From a virus: a DNA stretch of 64,000 nucleotides. Position 1 is the first letter of the stretch. Each line of letters opens with the position of its first letter. The position numbers and the translations under genes are program-made. Under the pieces are notes generated by a model. The model ran no database searches. It saw only the letters and a program-made list of their open reading frames with translations, and was not told where the DNA came from. Location: positions 64,001 through 128,000 of IMG/VR virus record IMGVR_UViG_3300028182_000001; one strand, given 5' to 3'. Positions 31,266 through 39,716 of the stretch are shown here, piece by piece.

Positions 31266-31299
31266 GTTGTTGACTAAAAGACAACCTACATGCTATAGT
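31266..31299 (+). promoter_or_regulatory. Phage early-type promoter
   Basis: GTTGTTGACT-18-TATAGT with TG. Confidence 0.7.
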
Positions 31300-32289: not shown

Positions 32290-33075
32290 ATGAATAAAGC
32301 AATGGCACTTAAAAAAATGCAAACTGTACTAGCGGAGATGACGTTCCCTTGGGTATCAGAAAGAACGATCCTATTACTACCTTATGGAAGCCGCTTGTAT
32401 GGAACTGACACACTTGAGTCTGACTGGGACTTCAAAGGGGTGTGTATCCCTCCTAAAGATTTCTACTTAGGACTGAATACGTTTAATGAATTTAACAACA
32501 CTGGTGGAAAGACATTTAAAAATACCAAAGAAGATGTAGATGTAAACATCCTACATATCAGTAAGTTCGTTAAGGACGCTATGCAAGGTGTACCTAACAA
32601 TATCGAAATGCTATTTGCTAGACCTGAAGACTATATCAAAGTGACAGAACTTGGACAAGTCCTGCTAGATAACCGTCATTTATTCCTATCTAAACAAATC
32701 ATGAGAAAATTTGGCGGGTATACTACATCCTTAGTGAACAAGCTGAAAAATGGTGCAGGGCGTACCGAACTAATTGAAGCACATGGATATGACACAAAGA
32801 ATTTTATGCAAGGTGTTAGACTGTTAATCTCTGCAATCGAAATCTTAGAAACTGGTGATTACAGCACATACCGTACTGAGCAAGATTTCTTACTAGGTTG
32901 CCGAGGTGGAGATTACACGCTTAGACAAGCGCTAGGTGTCATCGAATACCATGAGGAAAGACTACAAGAAGCTTATGAGAAATCTGAGCTACCTGATAAA
33001 CCTGATTATGATAAGGTTAACAACATGTTAATGGGGATCAATGAAGACGCACTAAAATTCGGTATCCACCAATGA
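32290..33075 (+). CDS. Pol-beta superfamily nucleotidyltransferase (YcgL/RlaP-like, RNA-repair-associated family)
   Basis: YGSRLYGT...SDWDFKGV motif, PNNIEML, GYDTK, helical C-terminus ending LPDKPD. Confidence 0.85.
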   Translation: MNKAMALKKMQTVLAEMTFPWVSERTILLLPYGSRLYGTDTLESDWDFKGVCIPPKDFYLGLNTFNEFNNTGGKTFKNTKEDVDVNILHISKFVKDAMQGVPNNIEMLFARPEDYIKVTELGQVLLDNRHLFLSKQIMRKFGGYTTSLVNKLKNGAGRTELIEAHGYDTKNFMQGVRLLISAIEILETGDYSTYRTEQDFLLGCRGGDYTLRQALGVIEYHEERLQEAYEKSELPDKPDYDKVNNMLMGINEDALKFGIHQ

Positions 33076-34224: not shown

Positions 34225-34524
34225 ATGACGGTGAATAGAAAAGAGATTGCAAGACGTGCGGCCCACATCGGTAACTACGATATCGGTGGGACAGAAGAAC
34301 TAACAAAGATAATCGAAGATGTTATCGTTAGTGCCCTAGCAAACGGGGAAAGTGTGAAGTTCGGTAAAGTATGTAAATGGGATATCGAGGAAGTACCTGA
34401 GAAGAGAGCATACGATGGTCTAAATAAAAAGTATTTTACTAGACCAGCGAAGCGCATACCGAAATACAAGCCACTAAAACGACTTACAGATATTGAGCTG
34501 CCAGTACAAAAGAAAGAGGAGTAA
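34225..34524 (+). CDS. HU/IHF-like DNA-binding protein (TF1-like)
   Basis: NRKEIARR...ALANGESVKFG...PAKRIPKYKP..L fold signature. Confidence 0.8.
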   Translation: MTVNRKEIARRAAHIGNYDIGGTEELTKIIEDVIVSALANGESVKFGKVCKWDIEEVPEKRAYDGLNKKYFTRPAKRIPKYKPLKRLTDIELPVQKKEE

Positions 34525-34540
34525 CGATCCTCTTTTTTCT
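34513..34540 (+). terminator. Intrinsic terminator
   Basis: AAAGAGGA-gtaacga-TCCTCTTT followed by T-run. Confidence 0.75.
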
Positions 34541-34550
34541 TTGTAATTTA

Positions 34551-34582
34551 TTGTTGACTTATAGACAAAGTTACAGTAATAT
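34551..34582 (+). promoter_or_regulatory. Early-type promoter of the methyltransferase pair
   Basis: TTGTTGACT-17-TAATAT. Confidence 0.7.
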
Positions 34583-34625
34583 TATCTACAGATACAGAAT
34601 ACATTATTAAGTTGAGGAGGTAATC

Positions 34626-35648
34626 ATGGACGAACTAAGAGTAGTAGAACTGTTTGCAGGATACGGTAGCCAATCAATGGCACTGAAACGAGCAAACATC
34701 AATTATAAAACTGTAGCGATTGCAGAGATTGATAAGGACGCACTGGTTTCTTATGAAGCAATCCACGGCAAACCAAATAACCTTGGAGACATTACCAAGG
34801 TAAGAGGAGAAGACGTTCCTGACCACGACTTCATGACGTATTCATTCCCTTGTACAGACATCTCTGTATCAGGTGCGATGAAAGGTCTATTGGAAGGTTC
34901 AGGTACAAGCTCTAGTACGTTATGGGATGTAAAGAGAGTAATAGAAGCGAAGAAACCTAGATTCCTAATGATGGAAAACGTAGACAACCTTGTTATCAAA
35001 TTCATGGACGACTACCTACTATGGTTAAAGTACCTAGAATCACAAGGGTATGCTACATCGTGGAAAGTTATTGACGCATCTCCTTACGTACCACAAAGAC
35101 GTAAACGTGTTATAGCAATCTCTCGATTAGATGGACAGGCATTCCCGTTCCCTGAAGACCCTACGGAGCGTACATATGATTTAATAGACGTGCTAGAGGA
35201 GTTCGATGATGCAGAAGCATTAGAGAGCTTTAAAGACCCTACAGTGCGAAGTGCTACAGTAGACCCTGTTACATATTATAACCCGAATTCAGATTACTAT
35301 AAACTGCAACCTGAGAATAGTAGAGCATCATTCATTGGATACATAGGGAACCAACCGAAACAGGCTACACGAGTATATGAACCTATCACGGCTTCAACGT
35401 TGACTGCTAATGGTGGCGGCCAAGGTGGGAAGACAGGTCTGTATCACCTAGGTACGCATATCCGAAATCTTAGTCCGTTAGAAGCGTGGCGCATCATGGG
35501 TGTGAGTGACGAGGACTTCTACAAGGCAAAAGCAACAGGTATCAAGAAGACCCAACTACTACGTCAAGCAGGGAACTCTATCGTAGTTGATATCATGGTA
35601 CCAATATTTGAAAAGCTCTTTAAAGATTATATGAAGGAGACAAAATAA
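34626..35648 (+). CDS. DNA (cytosine-5) methyltransferase 1
   Basis: ELFAGYGS (I), SFPC (IV), MENV (VI), PQRRKR (VIII), variable region, R.LSPLEAWRIMG (IX), QAGNSI (X). Confidence 0.93.
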   Translation: MDELRVVELFAGYGSQSMALKRANINYKTVAIAEIDKDALVSYEAIHGKPNNLGDITKVRGEDVPDHDFMTYSFPCTDISVSGAMKGLLEGSGTSSSTLWDVKRVIEAKKPRFLMMENVDNLVIKFMDDYLLWLKYLESQGYATSWKVIDASPYVPQRRKRVIAISRLDGQAFPFPEDPTERTYDLIDVLEEFDDAEALESFKDPTVRSATVDPVTYYNPNSDYYKLQPENSRASFIGYIGNQPKQATRVYEPITASTLTANGGGQGGKTGLYHLGTHIRNLSPLEAWRIMGVSDEDFYKAKATGIKKTQLLRQAGNSIVVDIMVPIFEKLFKDYMKETK

Positions 35649-35649
35649 T

Positions 35650-36315
35650 ATGACAAAGAAGAAACTAAAAGTACTAGAATTATTTGCTGGCACGAGGTCA
35701 GTAGGTAAAGCATTCGAAGCACAGGGACACGAGGTATATAGTGTTGAGTGGGATCAGAAACATCCAGGAATCCATTGGTACGCAGATATATCGAAAATCA
35801 CTGCACAGGAAATCATCGAACGCTTTGGTAAACCTGATATCATTTGGGCTAGTCCTGATTGTACAAGCTACTCAGTAGCAGGTATCTCGCATCACCGTAG
35901 AAAGGATGACGATGGTAACTTACGTCCTATTAGTGAGTATGCCCAATTCTGCGACACTACAAACCAACACGTAGTAGATTTAATTCGAGAACTTCAACCG
36001 AAGTACTACTTCATTGAGAATCCTCGTGGTGGAATGAGAAAGATGAACTTCATGCAGGATGACGCATTACCGAATGGTGGTAAACGTTACACAGTTACAT
36101 ATTGCCAGTACGGGGACACTCGTATGAAGCCAACTGACTTATGGACTAACCATCCTGAGCCGAAGTTTAAAGAGCCTTGTAAAAATGGTATGCCTTGTCA
36201 CGTAGCTGCCCCTCGTGGAAGCGCAACAGGTACACAAGGTATAAAAGGGTCTGTAGACCGTTCACGCATCCCTGAGGAGCTATGCAACCACGTAGCGAAG
36301 ATTTCTGAAGAGTAA
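35650..36315 (+). CDS. Short DNA (cytosine-5) methyltransferase-like protein 2
   Basis: ELFAGTRS (I), WASPDC (IV), IENP (VI), YCQYG...KPT, C-terminal RSRIP; only 221 aa. Confidence 0.8.
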   Translation: MTKKKLKVLELFAGTRSVGKAFEAQGHEVYSVEWDQKHPGIHWYADISKITAQEIIERFGKPDIIWASPDCTSYSVAGISHHRRKDDDGNLRPISEYAQFCDTTNQHVVDLIRELQPKYYFIENPRGGMRKMNFMQDDALPNGGKRYTVTYCQYGDTRMKPTDLWTNHPEPKFKEPCKNGMPCHVAAPRGSATGTQGIKGSVDRSRIPEELCNHVAKISEE

Positions 36316-36321
36316 AAGATT

Positions 36322-36348
36322 GAGAGGTGTAACAACCTCTCTTTTTTT
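36322..36348 (+). terminator. Intrinsic terminator
   Basis: GAGAGGT-gtaaca-ACCTCTC followed by T-run. Confidence 0.8.
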
Positions 36349-36599: not shown

Positions 36600-39500
36600 T
36601 TGAAAGCATTATTTCTACAAGAGTTTGTAAGAGAAAGTCACATGCAACGACAGAATGATGGATCGTTTAAAAACATATTCCTCCAAACTAACGGAGGAAA
36701 GCTGCTAAAGAAACTAATCCATGAAGGGTTAGAGCTAACGAAGAATGACTACTACATCGACTATGCGTTCTTCAAAGTACCTGAGGTTATTACTCGGGAT
36801 AATCGAGATAGAGCCATTAAGTACAAACCACCAACTGCAAAAGAATCGAAACCTGAATACGAGAACTTATACAAACGTATCGTACAGGACAAGCCTGACA
36901 TTATCATTCCTTCAGGTAAACTTGGGTGTAAAGCTCTACTGAATGTAGCAGAGATTTCTAAGCTACGAGGAGTACCACAACAAGTTACAATCACTGCAAA
37001 TATTGAAATGTTTGATGAGAGCGCAGTTGTTGAAGGTGTAGATAACTCAGGTTGGATTACAGAAACGTATACACATACATGTTGGGTTATGCCTATATAC
37101 AGTATGGAATACATGCTTGTTAATCCGAAGATTCAGAACTTAGTAGAAGCAGACTTCGGTACATTGAAGAAGTACGTAGAGCAAGGTGACAACGCATTTA
37201 TTGCGAAGGATGTAAAGTACGAAGATGTTACAACTATTGAACGTGTACGAGAAATCTTCACCAAGATAGTAAAAGAAGCTCCTATCGTAGCGTGGGATTT
37301 AGAGACCAATACGTTAGAAGCCGATAAAGCAGGTTCTAAACCACTAGTAATCTCTCTTTGTTGGAAAGAGGGTACAGGTGTAACCATTCCGTTAGAACAT
37401 AAGGACTGGACATGGCTTCCTGGTCACTTAGCTGAGATTTACAACTACATAAAAGAATTTGTTGCCGATCCGAAGATTGTTAAAGTCGGACACAACATCA
37501 AGTTCGATATCAGGTTCCTACGCTTATCTAGAGGGTTTACAGAGTTCAATAACCATCGTGATACAAAAACAATGTACTACCTACTTGTAAACCAGGATGT
37601 AAAAGGTTCATTACGTCTATCCGACTTAACATTCGAATTTACAGATATGGGTGGATATGATAGAGCGCTAGAGGACTTTAAAAAGGATTACAAAGAGAAC
37701 TACAAGAAGAACGAGAAAGAACGTATTGCAAAACTAAAAGAAGAATTTAAAGCGCAATGTGCAAAAGAAAGAGCAGAAGTACAACAGCAAGTGAAGGACG
37801 CAAAAGCAGAATTACGTTTACTCAAGAAGGAATCTCCAACGACTGAAATTCTTAATAGAATAACAGAGTTACAGGAGATTGCACAACGTAAGTATGTGAA
37901 ACCTTCGATGCCTGACTTTGGGACCGCAGGTTCACCAGTCAATCCTGTAGACGGATCGGACTTCTGTTATGAGTGGATTCCACTATTCGAAATGCTTTCT
38001 CCGTACGCTAGTGGTGACGTAGACGTGTGTTTACGTATCTATAACCAACTAGACCAAAGATGTCAGCAAAAAGGCTTAGAGCACATTAGAGAGCTTTATA
38101 CGAATCATTATCCACAACTATCTGCAACACTTGCTAAAATCGAAGCAACGGGAATCAAGTTAAACATCCCGTACGTACAAGCACTAGCAGATGCGTACCA
38201 AAAGGAAGAGGATCGTTTAACGGCAATCATCCGTAAGTTCCCTGAAGTAAAGCAAATGGAAGACGAACATCGCCAGCTTTACCAAATGGGATTAAACGAA
38301 CTTGCAAAGCCTGTAGCTGAGAGAGACAAGAAGATAGCGGCCTTACGTGATAAGTACAAGGACAAGCTAGAGTTTAACGCAAACTCTCCTGACGACAAGA
38401 AAGAGGTACTGTACAAGATTACAGGCATTCGACTACCGTTCGATAAAGAGCGTCTAGTAGACTCTGTATTCGAGAAGGGACTAAAAGAGGAAGAGATTGA
38501 ATGGTGCCATTACAAAACGAATACTGCGAACTTGGAGTACATCGCCAAGGAGTATCCTGAGTACAAGGAACTAGCAGAAGTTATGATCCATCACTCACTC
38601 GTTAAAACACGTAAGCAAAGTTTCACGTACAAGTTCCTTAGTATGGTAGATATGAACGATATCTTGCACGGTACGTTCAACCCTGAAGGTACAGAAACAT
38701 CTCGTCTATCGTCAAAAGACCCGAACTGTCAGAACTTCCCTCGTAAGACGGAAGATGTAACACGGTTCGACTATCAGCACCCTATTAAACGAATGTTCGT
38801 AAGTAGATTCACAAACGGAGCACTACTACAACTCGATTACTCTTCACTTGAATCTCGTATCATGGCTTTAATTGCATACGATGAGGAAATGATTGAAGCG
38901 TTCTTAACGAAGAAGGATGTACATACGCACACTGCTTCACTGGTATTCAAAAAGGCAGAAGAAGATGTAACAGGTGATGAACGTACGGCCGCTAAACGGG
39001 TAACATTCGGACTAGCGTACGGAGAAGCACCATTCTCGTTCGCACCTAAATACAACATGACAATCCAAGAAGCAGAGAAACTATTTGATGACTACTTCAA
39101 GAACAAACCGAAGATTAAAACGTACATTGATGAAACGAAAGAGAAAGCTAGACAGACGGGTTATATCTCTTGTATGCAAGGTTTCACTCGTAACTTACGA
39201 GATGTGTATTCGCAAGATAAACAGAAACGTAATGGTGCGTTACGTCAGTCTGTAAATACACAGGTACAGGGATCGGGTGCATTCTTAACGAATAACTCAT
39301 TAATCTACATCAACAACATTATTGAGAAGCAGGGACTACGTTCTCGTATCGTTCTAACTGTACACGATAGTATTGTTATAGATTGTCCACCCGAAGAAAT
39401 TCACATCATGGCTCACATCGGTAAAACAGTAATGGAGAACTTACCGATCCCTTGGTTACACATCGAGTGGAAAGGTGAAACAATTCGATTCCCTATTACG

Positions 39501-39716
39501 GCAGATGTGGAGATTGGTACAACATACAACGATATGGTTAACTACGATAAGGACGAACTAAACACGTTCCAAAAAGTAGAGAACTACTGTAAGTATCATA
39601 TGGACTTAAAGAGCGTGAAGCATTACAAAGAGTCAGGTATCATCACAGAAGAGAAAGCAAAAGAGCTAAAGGCTACGATTGAATCCAAAAAACAAGCGTA
39701 CCAAACGGCTGTATAA
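36600..39716 (+). CDS. polA: Family A DNA polymerase with N-terminal uracil-DNA-glycosylase-like domain and 3'-5' exonuclease
   Basis: WDLET, GHNIKFD, YASGDV exonuclease motifs; TSRLSS.DPN.QN, DYSSLESR (A), RTAAKRVTFGLAYG (B), VHDS (C); uninterrupted ORF. Confidence 0.95.
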   Translation: MKALFLQEFVRESHMQRQNDGSFKNIFLQTNGGKLLKKLIHEGLELTKNDYYIDYAFFKVPEVITRDNRDRAIKYKPPTAKESKPEYENLYKRIVQDKPDIIIPSGKLGCKALLNVAEISKLRGVPQQVTITANIEMFDESAVVEGVDNSGWITETYTHTCWVMPIYSMEYMLVNPKIQNLVEADFGTLKKYVEQGDNAFIAKDVKYEDVTTIERVREIFTKIVKEAPIVAWDLETNTLEADKAGSKPLVISLCWKEGTGVTIPLEHKDWTWLPGHLAEIYNYIKEFVADPKIVKVGHNIKFDIRFLRLSRGFTEFNNHRDTKTMYYLLVNQDVKGSLRLSDLTFEFTDMGGYDRALEDFKKDYKENYKKNEKERIAKLKEEFKAQCAKERAEVQQQVKDAKAELRLLKKESPTTEILNRITELQEIAQRKYVKPSMPDFGTAGSPVNPVDGSDFCYEWIPLFEMLSPYASGDVDVCLRIYNQLDQRCQQKGLEHIRELYTNHYPQLSATLAKIEATGIKLNIPYVQALADAYQKEEDRLTAIIRKFPEVKQMEDEHRQLYQMGLNELAKPVAERDKKIAALRDKYKDKLEFNANSPDDKKEVLYKITGIRLPFDKERLVDSVFEKGLKEEEIEWCHYKTNTANLEYIAKEYPEYKELAEVMIHHSLVKTRKQSFTYKFLSMVDMNDILHGTFNPEGTETSRLSSKDPNCQNFPRKTEDVTRFDYQHPIKRMFVSRFTNGALLQLDYSSLESRIMALIAYDEEMIEAFLTKKDVHTHTASLVFKKAEEDVTGDERTAAKRVTFGLAYGEAPFSFAPKYNMTIQEAEKLFDDYFKNKPKIKTYIDETKEKARQTGYISCMQGFTRNLRDVYSQDKQKRNGALRQSVNTQVQGSGAFLTNNSLIYINNIIEKQGLRSRIVLTVHDSIVIDCPPEEIHIMAHIGKTVMENLPIPWLHIEWKGETIRFPITADVEIGTTYNDMVNYDKDELNTFQKVENYCKYHMDLKSVKHYKESGIITEEKAKELKATIESKKQAYQTAV

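Follow-up and report, generated by a model that had tools for sequence, protein, structure and literature searches.

The DNA considered here (the window) is a stretch of 64,000 nucleotides, bases 64001-128000 of the IMG/VR record IMGVR_UViG_3300028182_000001, a phage genome of 158,403 bp that is complete and has terminal repeats. The phage is a virulent, Caeruleovirus-type virus of the Bacillus cereus group (Herelleviridae, Bastillevirinae). Beside its DNA polymerase gene lie two adjacent genes, both on the plus strand, for dissimilar C5-cytosine methyltransferases (C5-MTases) of 340 and 221 amino acids (aa). Here, we describe this cassette together with traces in the genome which suggest that the pair, an orphan system, probably protects phage DNA at the asymmetric words CCGC and GGATC, the latter seen as GGATCR.

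The cassette opens with a promoter-like site on the plus strand, TTGACT-17-TAATAT (34554-34582, 9/12 consensus match; whole element 34551..34582). Its -35 hexamer TTGACT (34554-34559) forms part of an extended 14-nucleotide (nt) word, TTGTTGACTTATAG (34551-34564), and its -10 hexamer TAATAT lies at 34577-34582. The extended word occurs in four exact copies on the plus strand of the window (30549, 34551, 36361 and 50314), each at a gene start, a count matched by 0 of 100 shuffles. The cassette is thus equipped with its own member of a phage promoter family. Near-copies are found at 31267 and 51522. The long gene follows at 34626-35648 (ribosome-binding site GAGGAGG, 34614-34620) and its TAA stop ends 1 nt ahead of the ATG of the short gene at 35650-36315 (AAGGAG, 35634-35639), so that each open reading frame (ORF) has a Shine-Dalgarno sequence of its own. 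An intrinsic-terminator-like hairpin at 36322-36341, with a 7-bp stem including four GC pairs, and a T-run (36322..36348 in all) close the cassette, while a second terminator-like hairpin on the same strand, 3' of the upstream HU-like gene (34509..34542, with one CGATCC word inside), insulates its 5' side. Because it has its own promoter and terminators, that of the HU-like gene included, the cassette is a self-contained transcription unit, in agreement with an earlier model-made note on this DNA (the original prediction). That note had also reported no adjacent restriction endonuclease, and indeed no nuclease is found among the neighbours, which are the HU-like protein, a phrog_1054 protein, a 52-aa membrane protein and DNA polymerase I. 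The cognate endonuclease of a type II or IIS restriction-modification (R-M) system is missing, and it is missing from the annotation of relatives as well.

Two dissimilar C5-methyltransferases

The long protein is the canonical C5-MTase that had been predicted. It matches PF00145 over the full length (profile 2-324, 1.4e-51, 176 bits with a cut-off of 22) as well as TIGR00675 (1.8e-48, 165.9 bits, cut-off 100.65), which places it in the C5-MTase family, and its motifs follow in order: I (FAGYGS), IV (FPCTD), VI (ENV), VIII (QRRKR) and IX/X (...GNSIVV). The alignment with M.HhaI (327 aa) takes in residues 4-325 (E 1.8e-30), including the variable-region frame TL...GGG...KTG. Judged by its sequence, the protein thus has the size and alignment of a mono-specific enzyme with a single HhaI-type variable region. 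Tandem target recognition domains (TRDs), the hallmark of the multispecific SPR/phi3T enzymes, are absent from the long protein, which runs 1:1 with M.HhaI through the variable region; the original prediction had likewise set the cassette apart from the multispecific palindromic MTases of Bacillus phages. The TRD (residues 165-300) is rarely encountered elsewhere. A word-indexed search of 5.8 billion proteins returned only 8 proteins that share it, four Caeruleovirus orthologues and four longer metagenomic MTases (51-66% identity), and no relative of this TRD with enough flanking DNA was found in IMG/VR, GTDB genomes or JGI metagenomes. The MTases of BMBphi and 1_ICo-2020 were considered as guides to specificity and set aside, as they are 41% identical overall but differ in the TRD.

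The short protein, assigned by PHROGs to phrog_757 ('DNA methyltransferase'), matches the N-terminal third of PF00145 only (residues 6-127, 3.2e-8, 33.8 bits, cut-off 22). It nevertheless has the hallmarks of a C5-MTase, with motif I as LFAGTRS, the catalytic Cys71 in SPDC and the motif VI glutamate in E123-N-P. In an alignment of 50 diverse family members C71 (in SP[PD]C), E123, N124, P125, K160, T162, H184 and P208 are invariant, and G14, C152, C177 and C183 nearly so. An AlphaFold2 model of high confidence (predicted local distance difference test score 96.5, predicted template-modelling score 0.92) superimposes on M.HhaI with Z 15.9 and a root-mean-square deviation of 3.0 over 185 residues, pairing model residues 4-221 with chain residues 10-320, and on the prophage C5-MTase 3g7u with Z 15.7. 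Since the structural alignment extends over the whole length, the short protein is, according to this model, a complete C5-MTase catalytic domain and neither a fragment nor an M.AquI-type subunit. This structural comparison, which the original prediction had proposed, therefore modifies one of its statements: motifs I, IV and VI are present and a classical TRD is lacking, as it said, but an equivalent of the C-terminal motif-X helix, which it had reported missing, is present in the model. The place of a conventional TRD between motifs VIII and IX is taken by a 'mini-TRD', a loop of about 35 residues (167-200) that forms no regular secondary structure. Here lies a Cys/His set (C152, C177, C183, H184), whose conservation suggests a putative Cys3-His zinc site.

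Two known architectures resemble the short protein. Like the N-terminal subunit of M.AquI-type split MTases (NF045953), it matches PF00145 through its N-terminal motifs only; unlike that subunit, it has a complete fold including the C-terminal helix and stands alone in most genomes. NF045953 itself gives a weak match to the long protein (24.5 bits, cut-off 93) and none to the short one. The catalytic domains of DNMT3A/B resemble the short protein in having a full catalytic core and a minimal recognition element. Together with M.HhaI they are its best structural matches, and they align with the model over residues 1-221 (Z 15.4-15.6, with DNMT3B at 15.4; Foldseek E 1e-9). Identity to DNMT3A/B is 13-16%, however, the Cys/His loop takes the place of the DNMT3 TRD loop, and partner domains are absent. 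A short 2-bp specificity such as CpG is incompatible with the avoidance pattern of the genome.

The family of the short protein is very large, mainly viral and, as the original prediction had supposed, poorly characterised. A word search gave >8000 matches, many of them 70-80% identical (Enterococcus, Mammaliicoccus, Oceanobacillus, Heyndrickxia), and an exhaustive phmmer search with an E limit of 0.001 gave 2308 clusters (50% identity); no characterised member was found as far as the search reached. The nearest ESM Atlas clusters are 83-100% viral, and the family is practically absent from plasmids. It is also overwhelmingly solo: at 78 IMG/VR loci with a homologue, another C5-MTase-like match lies within 10 kb in only four. 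Some members contain inteins with LAGLIDADG domains, in three cases (P0121, P0123, P0125) directly before the catalytic Cys71 and in one (P0124) near residue 162. Inteins tend to occupy sites of critical function in important proteins.

Asymmetric exemptions from host-site avoidance

Across the whole genome, every one of the 72 GGCC sites (72/72) lies within GGCCGC, where about 8% would do so by chance, and 20 of the 26 GGWCC sites are followed by GC. Taken together, unprotected GGCC and GGWCC number 6 where composition predicts 373, and copies in CCGC context number 92 with 32 expected. GATC follows the same pattern, as 268 of its 292 sites are found in GGATCR (185 as CGATCC/GGATCG and 83 as TGATCC/GGATCA). 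Outside GGATCR there are 24 sites compared with about 456 expected, about 20 of these in asymmetric contexts, and RGATCY, TGATCA and CGATCG are essentially absent. Both footprints are genuine and far beyond chance. They agree with the CCGC and GATCC (GGATC) footprints reported in the original prediction, and they take the form of asymmetric, context-specific exemptions from a near-total avoidance of GGCC/GGWCC and GATC.

GCNGC was considered as the protecting word and ruled out: GGWCC survives as GGACCGC/GCGGTCC, which has CCGC and lacks GCNGC, and the protecting word is therefore CCGC. A coding artefact can be dismissed too. The protected words occur on both strands, in all reading frames, sense and antisense, and in intergenic DNA, evenly spread along the genome, and the signal is therefore one at the level of DNA rather than of coding. 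On its own, CCGC is underrepresented in the present genome (218 of 506), whereas in relatives that lack MTases it stands at about 1.0; this depletion comes in part from the avoidance of CCCGC, CCGCG and CCGCTC.

Avoidance extends well beyond these sites. Among the 64 six-base palindromes 32 are at or below 0.12 of expectation and 23 have zero copies, while CCGG has 0 copies and CGCG 5 in the whole genome. The one GC-rich exception, CGGCCG (16 vs 10 expected), is accounted for by each copy being part of GGCCGC. Several asymmetric words are nearly absent as well, namely CCAGA (1 copy, about 120-228 expected), CGACG (3), GAGGC (3), CCCGC (6) and CCGCTC (2), and these words are probably targets of type IIS/III enzymes or half-sites of type I enzymes from the pool of B. 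cereus hosts. The depletion of CCAGA and GAGGC is common to the MTase-less phage BCU4 and is not seen in Anthony, Abinadi or vB_BcgM.

Cassette and footprints among relatives

The segment 34225-36600 matches 21 public records at 81-93% DNA identity. Most are B. cereus-group myoviruses, for example Bcp1, BM15, Hobo, JBP901, Deep Blue, PK16 and BCP8-2, and the records opened belong to the genus Caeruleovirus (Herelleviridae, Bastillevirinae). The record MN364664.1, 'Xanthomonas phage Xoo-sp15', has a cassette 86% identical to those of B. cereus Caeruleoviruses, and its host assignment looks doubtful. A 340-aa gene and a gene of ~221-228 aa are present in 21/21 records, and the pair is thus the invariant core of what is otherwise a variable island of two to four C5-MTase genes; public relatives annotate the two as 'C-5 cytosine methylase I/II'. 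Two MTases are found in the present genome and in Bcp1, and three in Deep Blue (L001 3391-6340) and BC-VP, which have an extra 419-aa C5-MTase upstream. PK16 (L135 317-4316) has four, with a further 327-aa C5-MTase downstream, and in BCP8-2 an HNH gene of homing type lies between the two core genes. In the MTase-less Bastillevirinae vB_BcgM, Anthony, Abinadi and BCU4 a few small ORFs separate the HU-like gene from the polymerase gene downstream, and the cassette is therefore an insertion between these two genes. In the present 158-kb genome PF00145 has two matches, both of them cassette genes, and PF02086, PF01555, PF05869 and PF02384 (Dam-type, N4/N6-type and type I/IIG MTases) have none.

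Both footprints are present, with near-identical counts, in all seven cassette-bearing genomes examined (the present genome, Bcp1, BM15, JBP901, BCP8-2, Deep Blue and PK16). PK16, for instance, has 276 of its 302 GATC in GGATCR and all 61 GGCC in GGCCGC, and Deep Blue 274 of 305 and 52 of 52, respectively. The phages vB_BcgM (B. mycoides), Anthony (B. thuringiensis) and Abinadi (B. anthracis), the loci L116, L117 and L118, have no PF00145 match genome-wide, and in the 43 kb counted for each they contain GATC 0 times (about 150 expected), GGCC 0 times (about 58 expected), and neither GGATC nor GGCCGC. The exemptions thus co-occur with the cassette across Bastillevirinae, and we consider the link between the two well supported. 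That two genus-wide footprints go with two core enzymes is the main support for the earlier suggestion that each enzyme accounts for one of them. The accessory MTases of Deep Blue and PK16, with three and four MTases, are accompanied by no 4-6 bp k-mer much commoner than in the present genome. In vB_BcgM, Anthony and Abinadi CCWGG is zero or near zero too, and pure avoidance appears as an alternative strategy. CCWGG as a third exemption was rejected: it is absent from these three MTase-less relatives, but MTase-less BCU4 has it, so that differing host landscapes would account for it just as well.

How could two methyltransferases give rise to such exemptions? Lying beside the polymerase and behind a recurring phage promoter, the cassette should act on replicating DNA, and the two C5-MTases of this replication module would methylate it at CCGC and GGATC. 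Any GGCC, GGWCC or GATC site that overlaps one of the two words would then be protected from the host enzymes that cut it, and selection would purge every other copy. In this scheme, the exemptions would be a consequence of methylation. GAT(m5C), in which m5C is 5-methylcytosine, blocks GATC enzymes of Sau3AI type, GG(m5C)C blocks enzymes of HaeIII/BsuRI type, and m5C in the CC blocks enzymes of AvaII type. Given these sensitivities, methylation would probably fall on the C of GGAT-C and, within CCGC, on the first or the second C. In both words, top-strand methylation would mark only one strand of the host site, so that either hemimethylation must suffice or the second strand must be served as well. 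Systems specific for GGWCC, GCWGC and ACGGC, together with a multispecific prophage MTase, are described from B. cereus strains (PMC3459991).

Several observations weigh against this account. The link between cassette and footprints is correlative and confounded by host range: the three relatives without GATC have different hosts within the host group, and BCU4 (Tsarbombavirus), with 0 C5-MTases, tolerates GATC without a bias to GGATC (GGATCR 24 vs 30, 0.8), so that the host landscape differs between lineages, although BCU4 has many avoided words in common with the present genome. The protected words also exceed the estimate from composition, GGATCR by 2.4x (268 vs 114) and GGCCGC by 3.6x (72 vs 20), and simple tolerance is therefore insufficient. 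In addition, GGATCC and GGATCT contain GGATC yet are absent, which calls for a second assumption, a host enzyme of RGATCY/BamHI type that is insensitive to the mark; BCU4 is likewise without RGATCY, which fits such an enzyme in a shared host pool. The phages with only a short-family enzyme are a further difficulty. For this comparison we used the 78 IMG/VR loci with a short-family homologue (45-77% identity), leaving out L050, whose gene is broken. At the 17 loci with at least 60% identity whose avoidance of GGCC and GGWCC is as strong as in the present phage, CCGC contexts number 2 against 21.8 expected, and at the 13 GATC-avoiding short-only loci GGATCR numbers 27 against 102. G001 (70% identity) retains 3 GATC of 46 expected, none in GGATCR, and the mini-TRD loop is almost invariant across short homologues 60-77% identical. 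Unless specificity has shifted in the short enzyme of Caeruleovirus, a single long enzyme of mono-specific size would then have to account for both footprints. Among the other short-only phages, the complete 34.5-kb phage G002 has mixed GATC contexts, and a 25-site panel over 77 short-only loci, run with no matched control set, gave GCNGC, TGCA, GTAC and GTNAC as never strongly avoided.

A different view is that phage methylation has no part in the footprints, which would reflect host-enzyme specificities, or GGATCR and GGCCGC as positively selected functional words, with the MTases unrelated. The enrichment of both words above neutral expectation agrees with this, as do avoidance profiles that differ between genera by host. 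So does the IMG/VR locus L017, which has the reverse pattern (GATC 99 vs 65 expected, GGATC 0 vs 17.5): some hosts evidently restrict GGATC itself, and the word is contested. Nonetheless, a restriction set sparing exactly GGATCR and the NCCGC contexts of GGCC and GGWCC would be contrived, no strand or positional bias hints at a cis-acting role, and the exemptions are found wherever the cassette is present and are lacking wherever it is absent. We hold this view to be very improbable. Alternatively, the two enzymes could each methylate one strand of the same asymmetric word, for example GGATC/GATCC, with the second footprint a product of relaxed or double specificity in one of them. In favour of this, each exempt word is asymmetric and contains cytosine in either strand, the genes invariably lie next to each other and are transcribed together, and one-strand marking by the short enzyme would explain why short-only phages are free of exemptions. 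Such a strand pair seems unlikely to us, in that methylating both strands of the two footprint words would demand four specificities from two core enzymes, members of the short family nearly always occur alone, the HNH gene between the BCP8-2 genes indicates that tight coupling is not required, and a restriction endonuclease partner is absent.

A further possibility is that the long MTase makes both footprints alone, the short enzyme keeping its family's different, probably short motif for another purpose, such as protection from a defence invisible in k-mer counts. From Caeruleovirus to distant phages the mini-TRD loop hardly varies, neither exemption is found in short-only phages, and the long TRD is almost limited to this genus, as are the footprints; the extra MTases of Deep Blue and PK16 illustrate that an MTase without a footprint is possible. 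Yet an enzyme with one variable region of HhaI size should recognise a single word, and no core common to CCGC and GGATC is obvious, so that a long enzyme reading two unrelated words is unlikely. Moreover, the Caeruleovirus short enzymes have features compatible with retargeting: Ala192 where relatives have Arg/Lys (in the loop APRGS-x-TGTQG) and a 4-6-residue insertion at 138-145. We give this possibility a modest minority share of our belief. Since short-only phages lack both exemptions, the usual specificity of the short family is probably neither CCGC nor GGATC; either of the two loop changes could alter recognition, and being specific to this lineage they leave the idea of one enzyme for each footprint compatible with the short-only result.

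Returning to methylation of CCGC and GGATC by two enzymes, which enzyme would serve which word? We lean weakly, just to one side of even, towards the long enzyme for the CCGC mark and the Caeruleovirus short enzyme for the GGATC mark. The long TRD has its frame in common with that of M.HhaI, whose word GCGC agrees with CCGC in three of four bases, it is all but restricted to the genus in which the footprint occurs, and of the two negative results in short-only phages the one for CCGC is cleaner; GGATC would fall to the short enzyme by elimination. A bolder version, which we regard as speculative and rather doubtful, is that a C5-MTase of ~220 aa with a 35-residue Cys/His loop reads GGATC after two loop changes, and that the methylated words are positively selected. 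If true, m5C in the phage would serve beyond blocking restriction, for instance in marking self from non-self.

Related systems and neighbouring genes

Orphan C5-MTases of the phages SPR, phi3T, rho11s, SPbeta and H2 self-methylate phage DNA against host type II enzymes. Like the cassette, the MTases of temperate Bacillus phages and BCE_0393 are phage-borne C5-MTases without a cognate nuclease. The SPR/phi3T-type enzymes are about 440-500 aa long, have multiple TRDs in tandem and directly methylate the host's palindromic sites, whereas the cassette consists of two separate small enzymes in a virulent myovirus, and the words assigned to it are asymmetric and only overlap host sites, which points to contextual protection combined with purging of all other copies. 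BCE_0393 is a multispecific MTase of a B. cereus ATCC 10987 prophage and provides self-methylation against host type II enzymes including GGCC/GGWCC-specific ones (PMC3459991). The relative Bc431v3 has two C5-MTases, of unknown effect (PMC3601020).

Paired C5-MTases are also a feature of type IIS systems such as M.HgaI-1/-2 and M.FauIA/B, and CCGC and GGATC are themselves type IIS recognition sequences, read by AciI and by AlwI/BinI, respectively. The cassette resembles such pairs in its two adjacent C5-MTase genes and asymmetric 4-5-bp words, and differs from type IIS R-M systems in that the endonuclease gene is absent and one partner has no conventional TRD. No literature was found on the specificity of either enzyme or on contextual exemptions. 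Orphan phage MTases as an anti-restriction device are thus known and the genes themselves are already annotated; what would be new here is the use of asymmetric overlapping words with purging of unprotected copies, and contextual, asymmetric-site protection appears to be undescribed so far.

These results have several implications. Sequence alone leads to a prediction of m5C at CCGC and GGATC for two uncharacterised enzymes. The combination of near-total purging with contextual rescue would amount to a mixed counter-restriction strategy, unlike that of the textbook multispecific Bacillus-phage MTases. Caeruleoviruses such as Bcp1, Deep Blue, JBP901 and PK16 are studied as B. cereus biocontrol agents, and the cassette likely shapes their host range. 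Finally, the specificities of MTases from other phages could be deduced from the context of residual sites.

The HU-like and polymerase genes beside the cassette lie on the same strand as it does. Upstream, the HU/IHF-like DNA-binding protein (PF00216, 8.9e-10) is encoded at 34225..34524, and two genes upstream of the cassette, at 32290-33075, lies the gene of an RlaP-type nucleotidyltransferase (PF10127, 9e-16). Downstream, the gene of DNA polymerase I (1038 aa) occupies 36600..39716 and is uninterrupted; in Deep Blue (L001 6626-9616), JBP901, Anthony and others, an inserted ORF of I-BasI/HNH type splits it.

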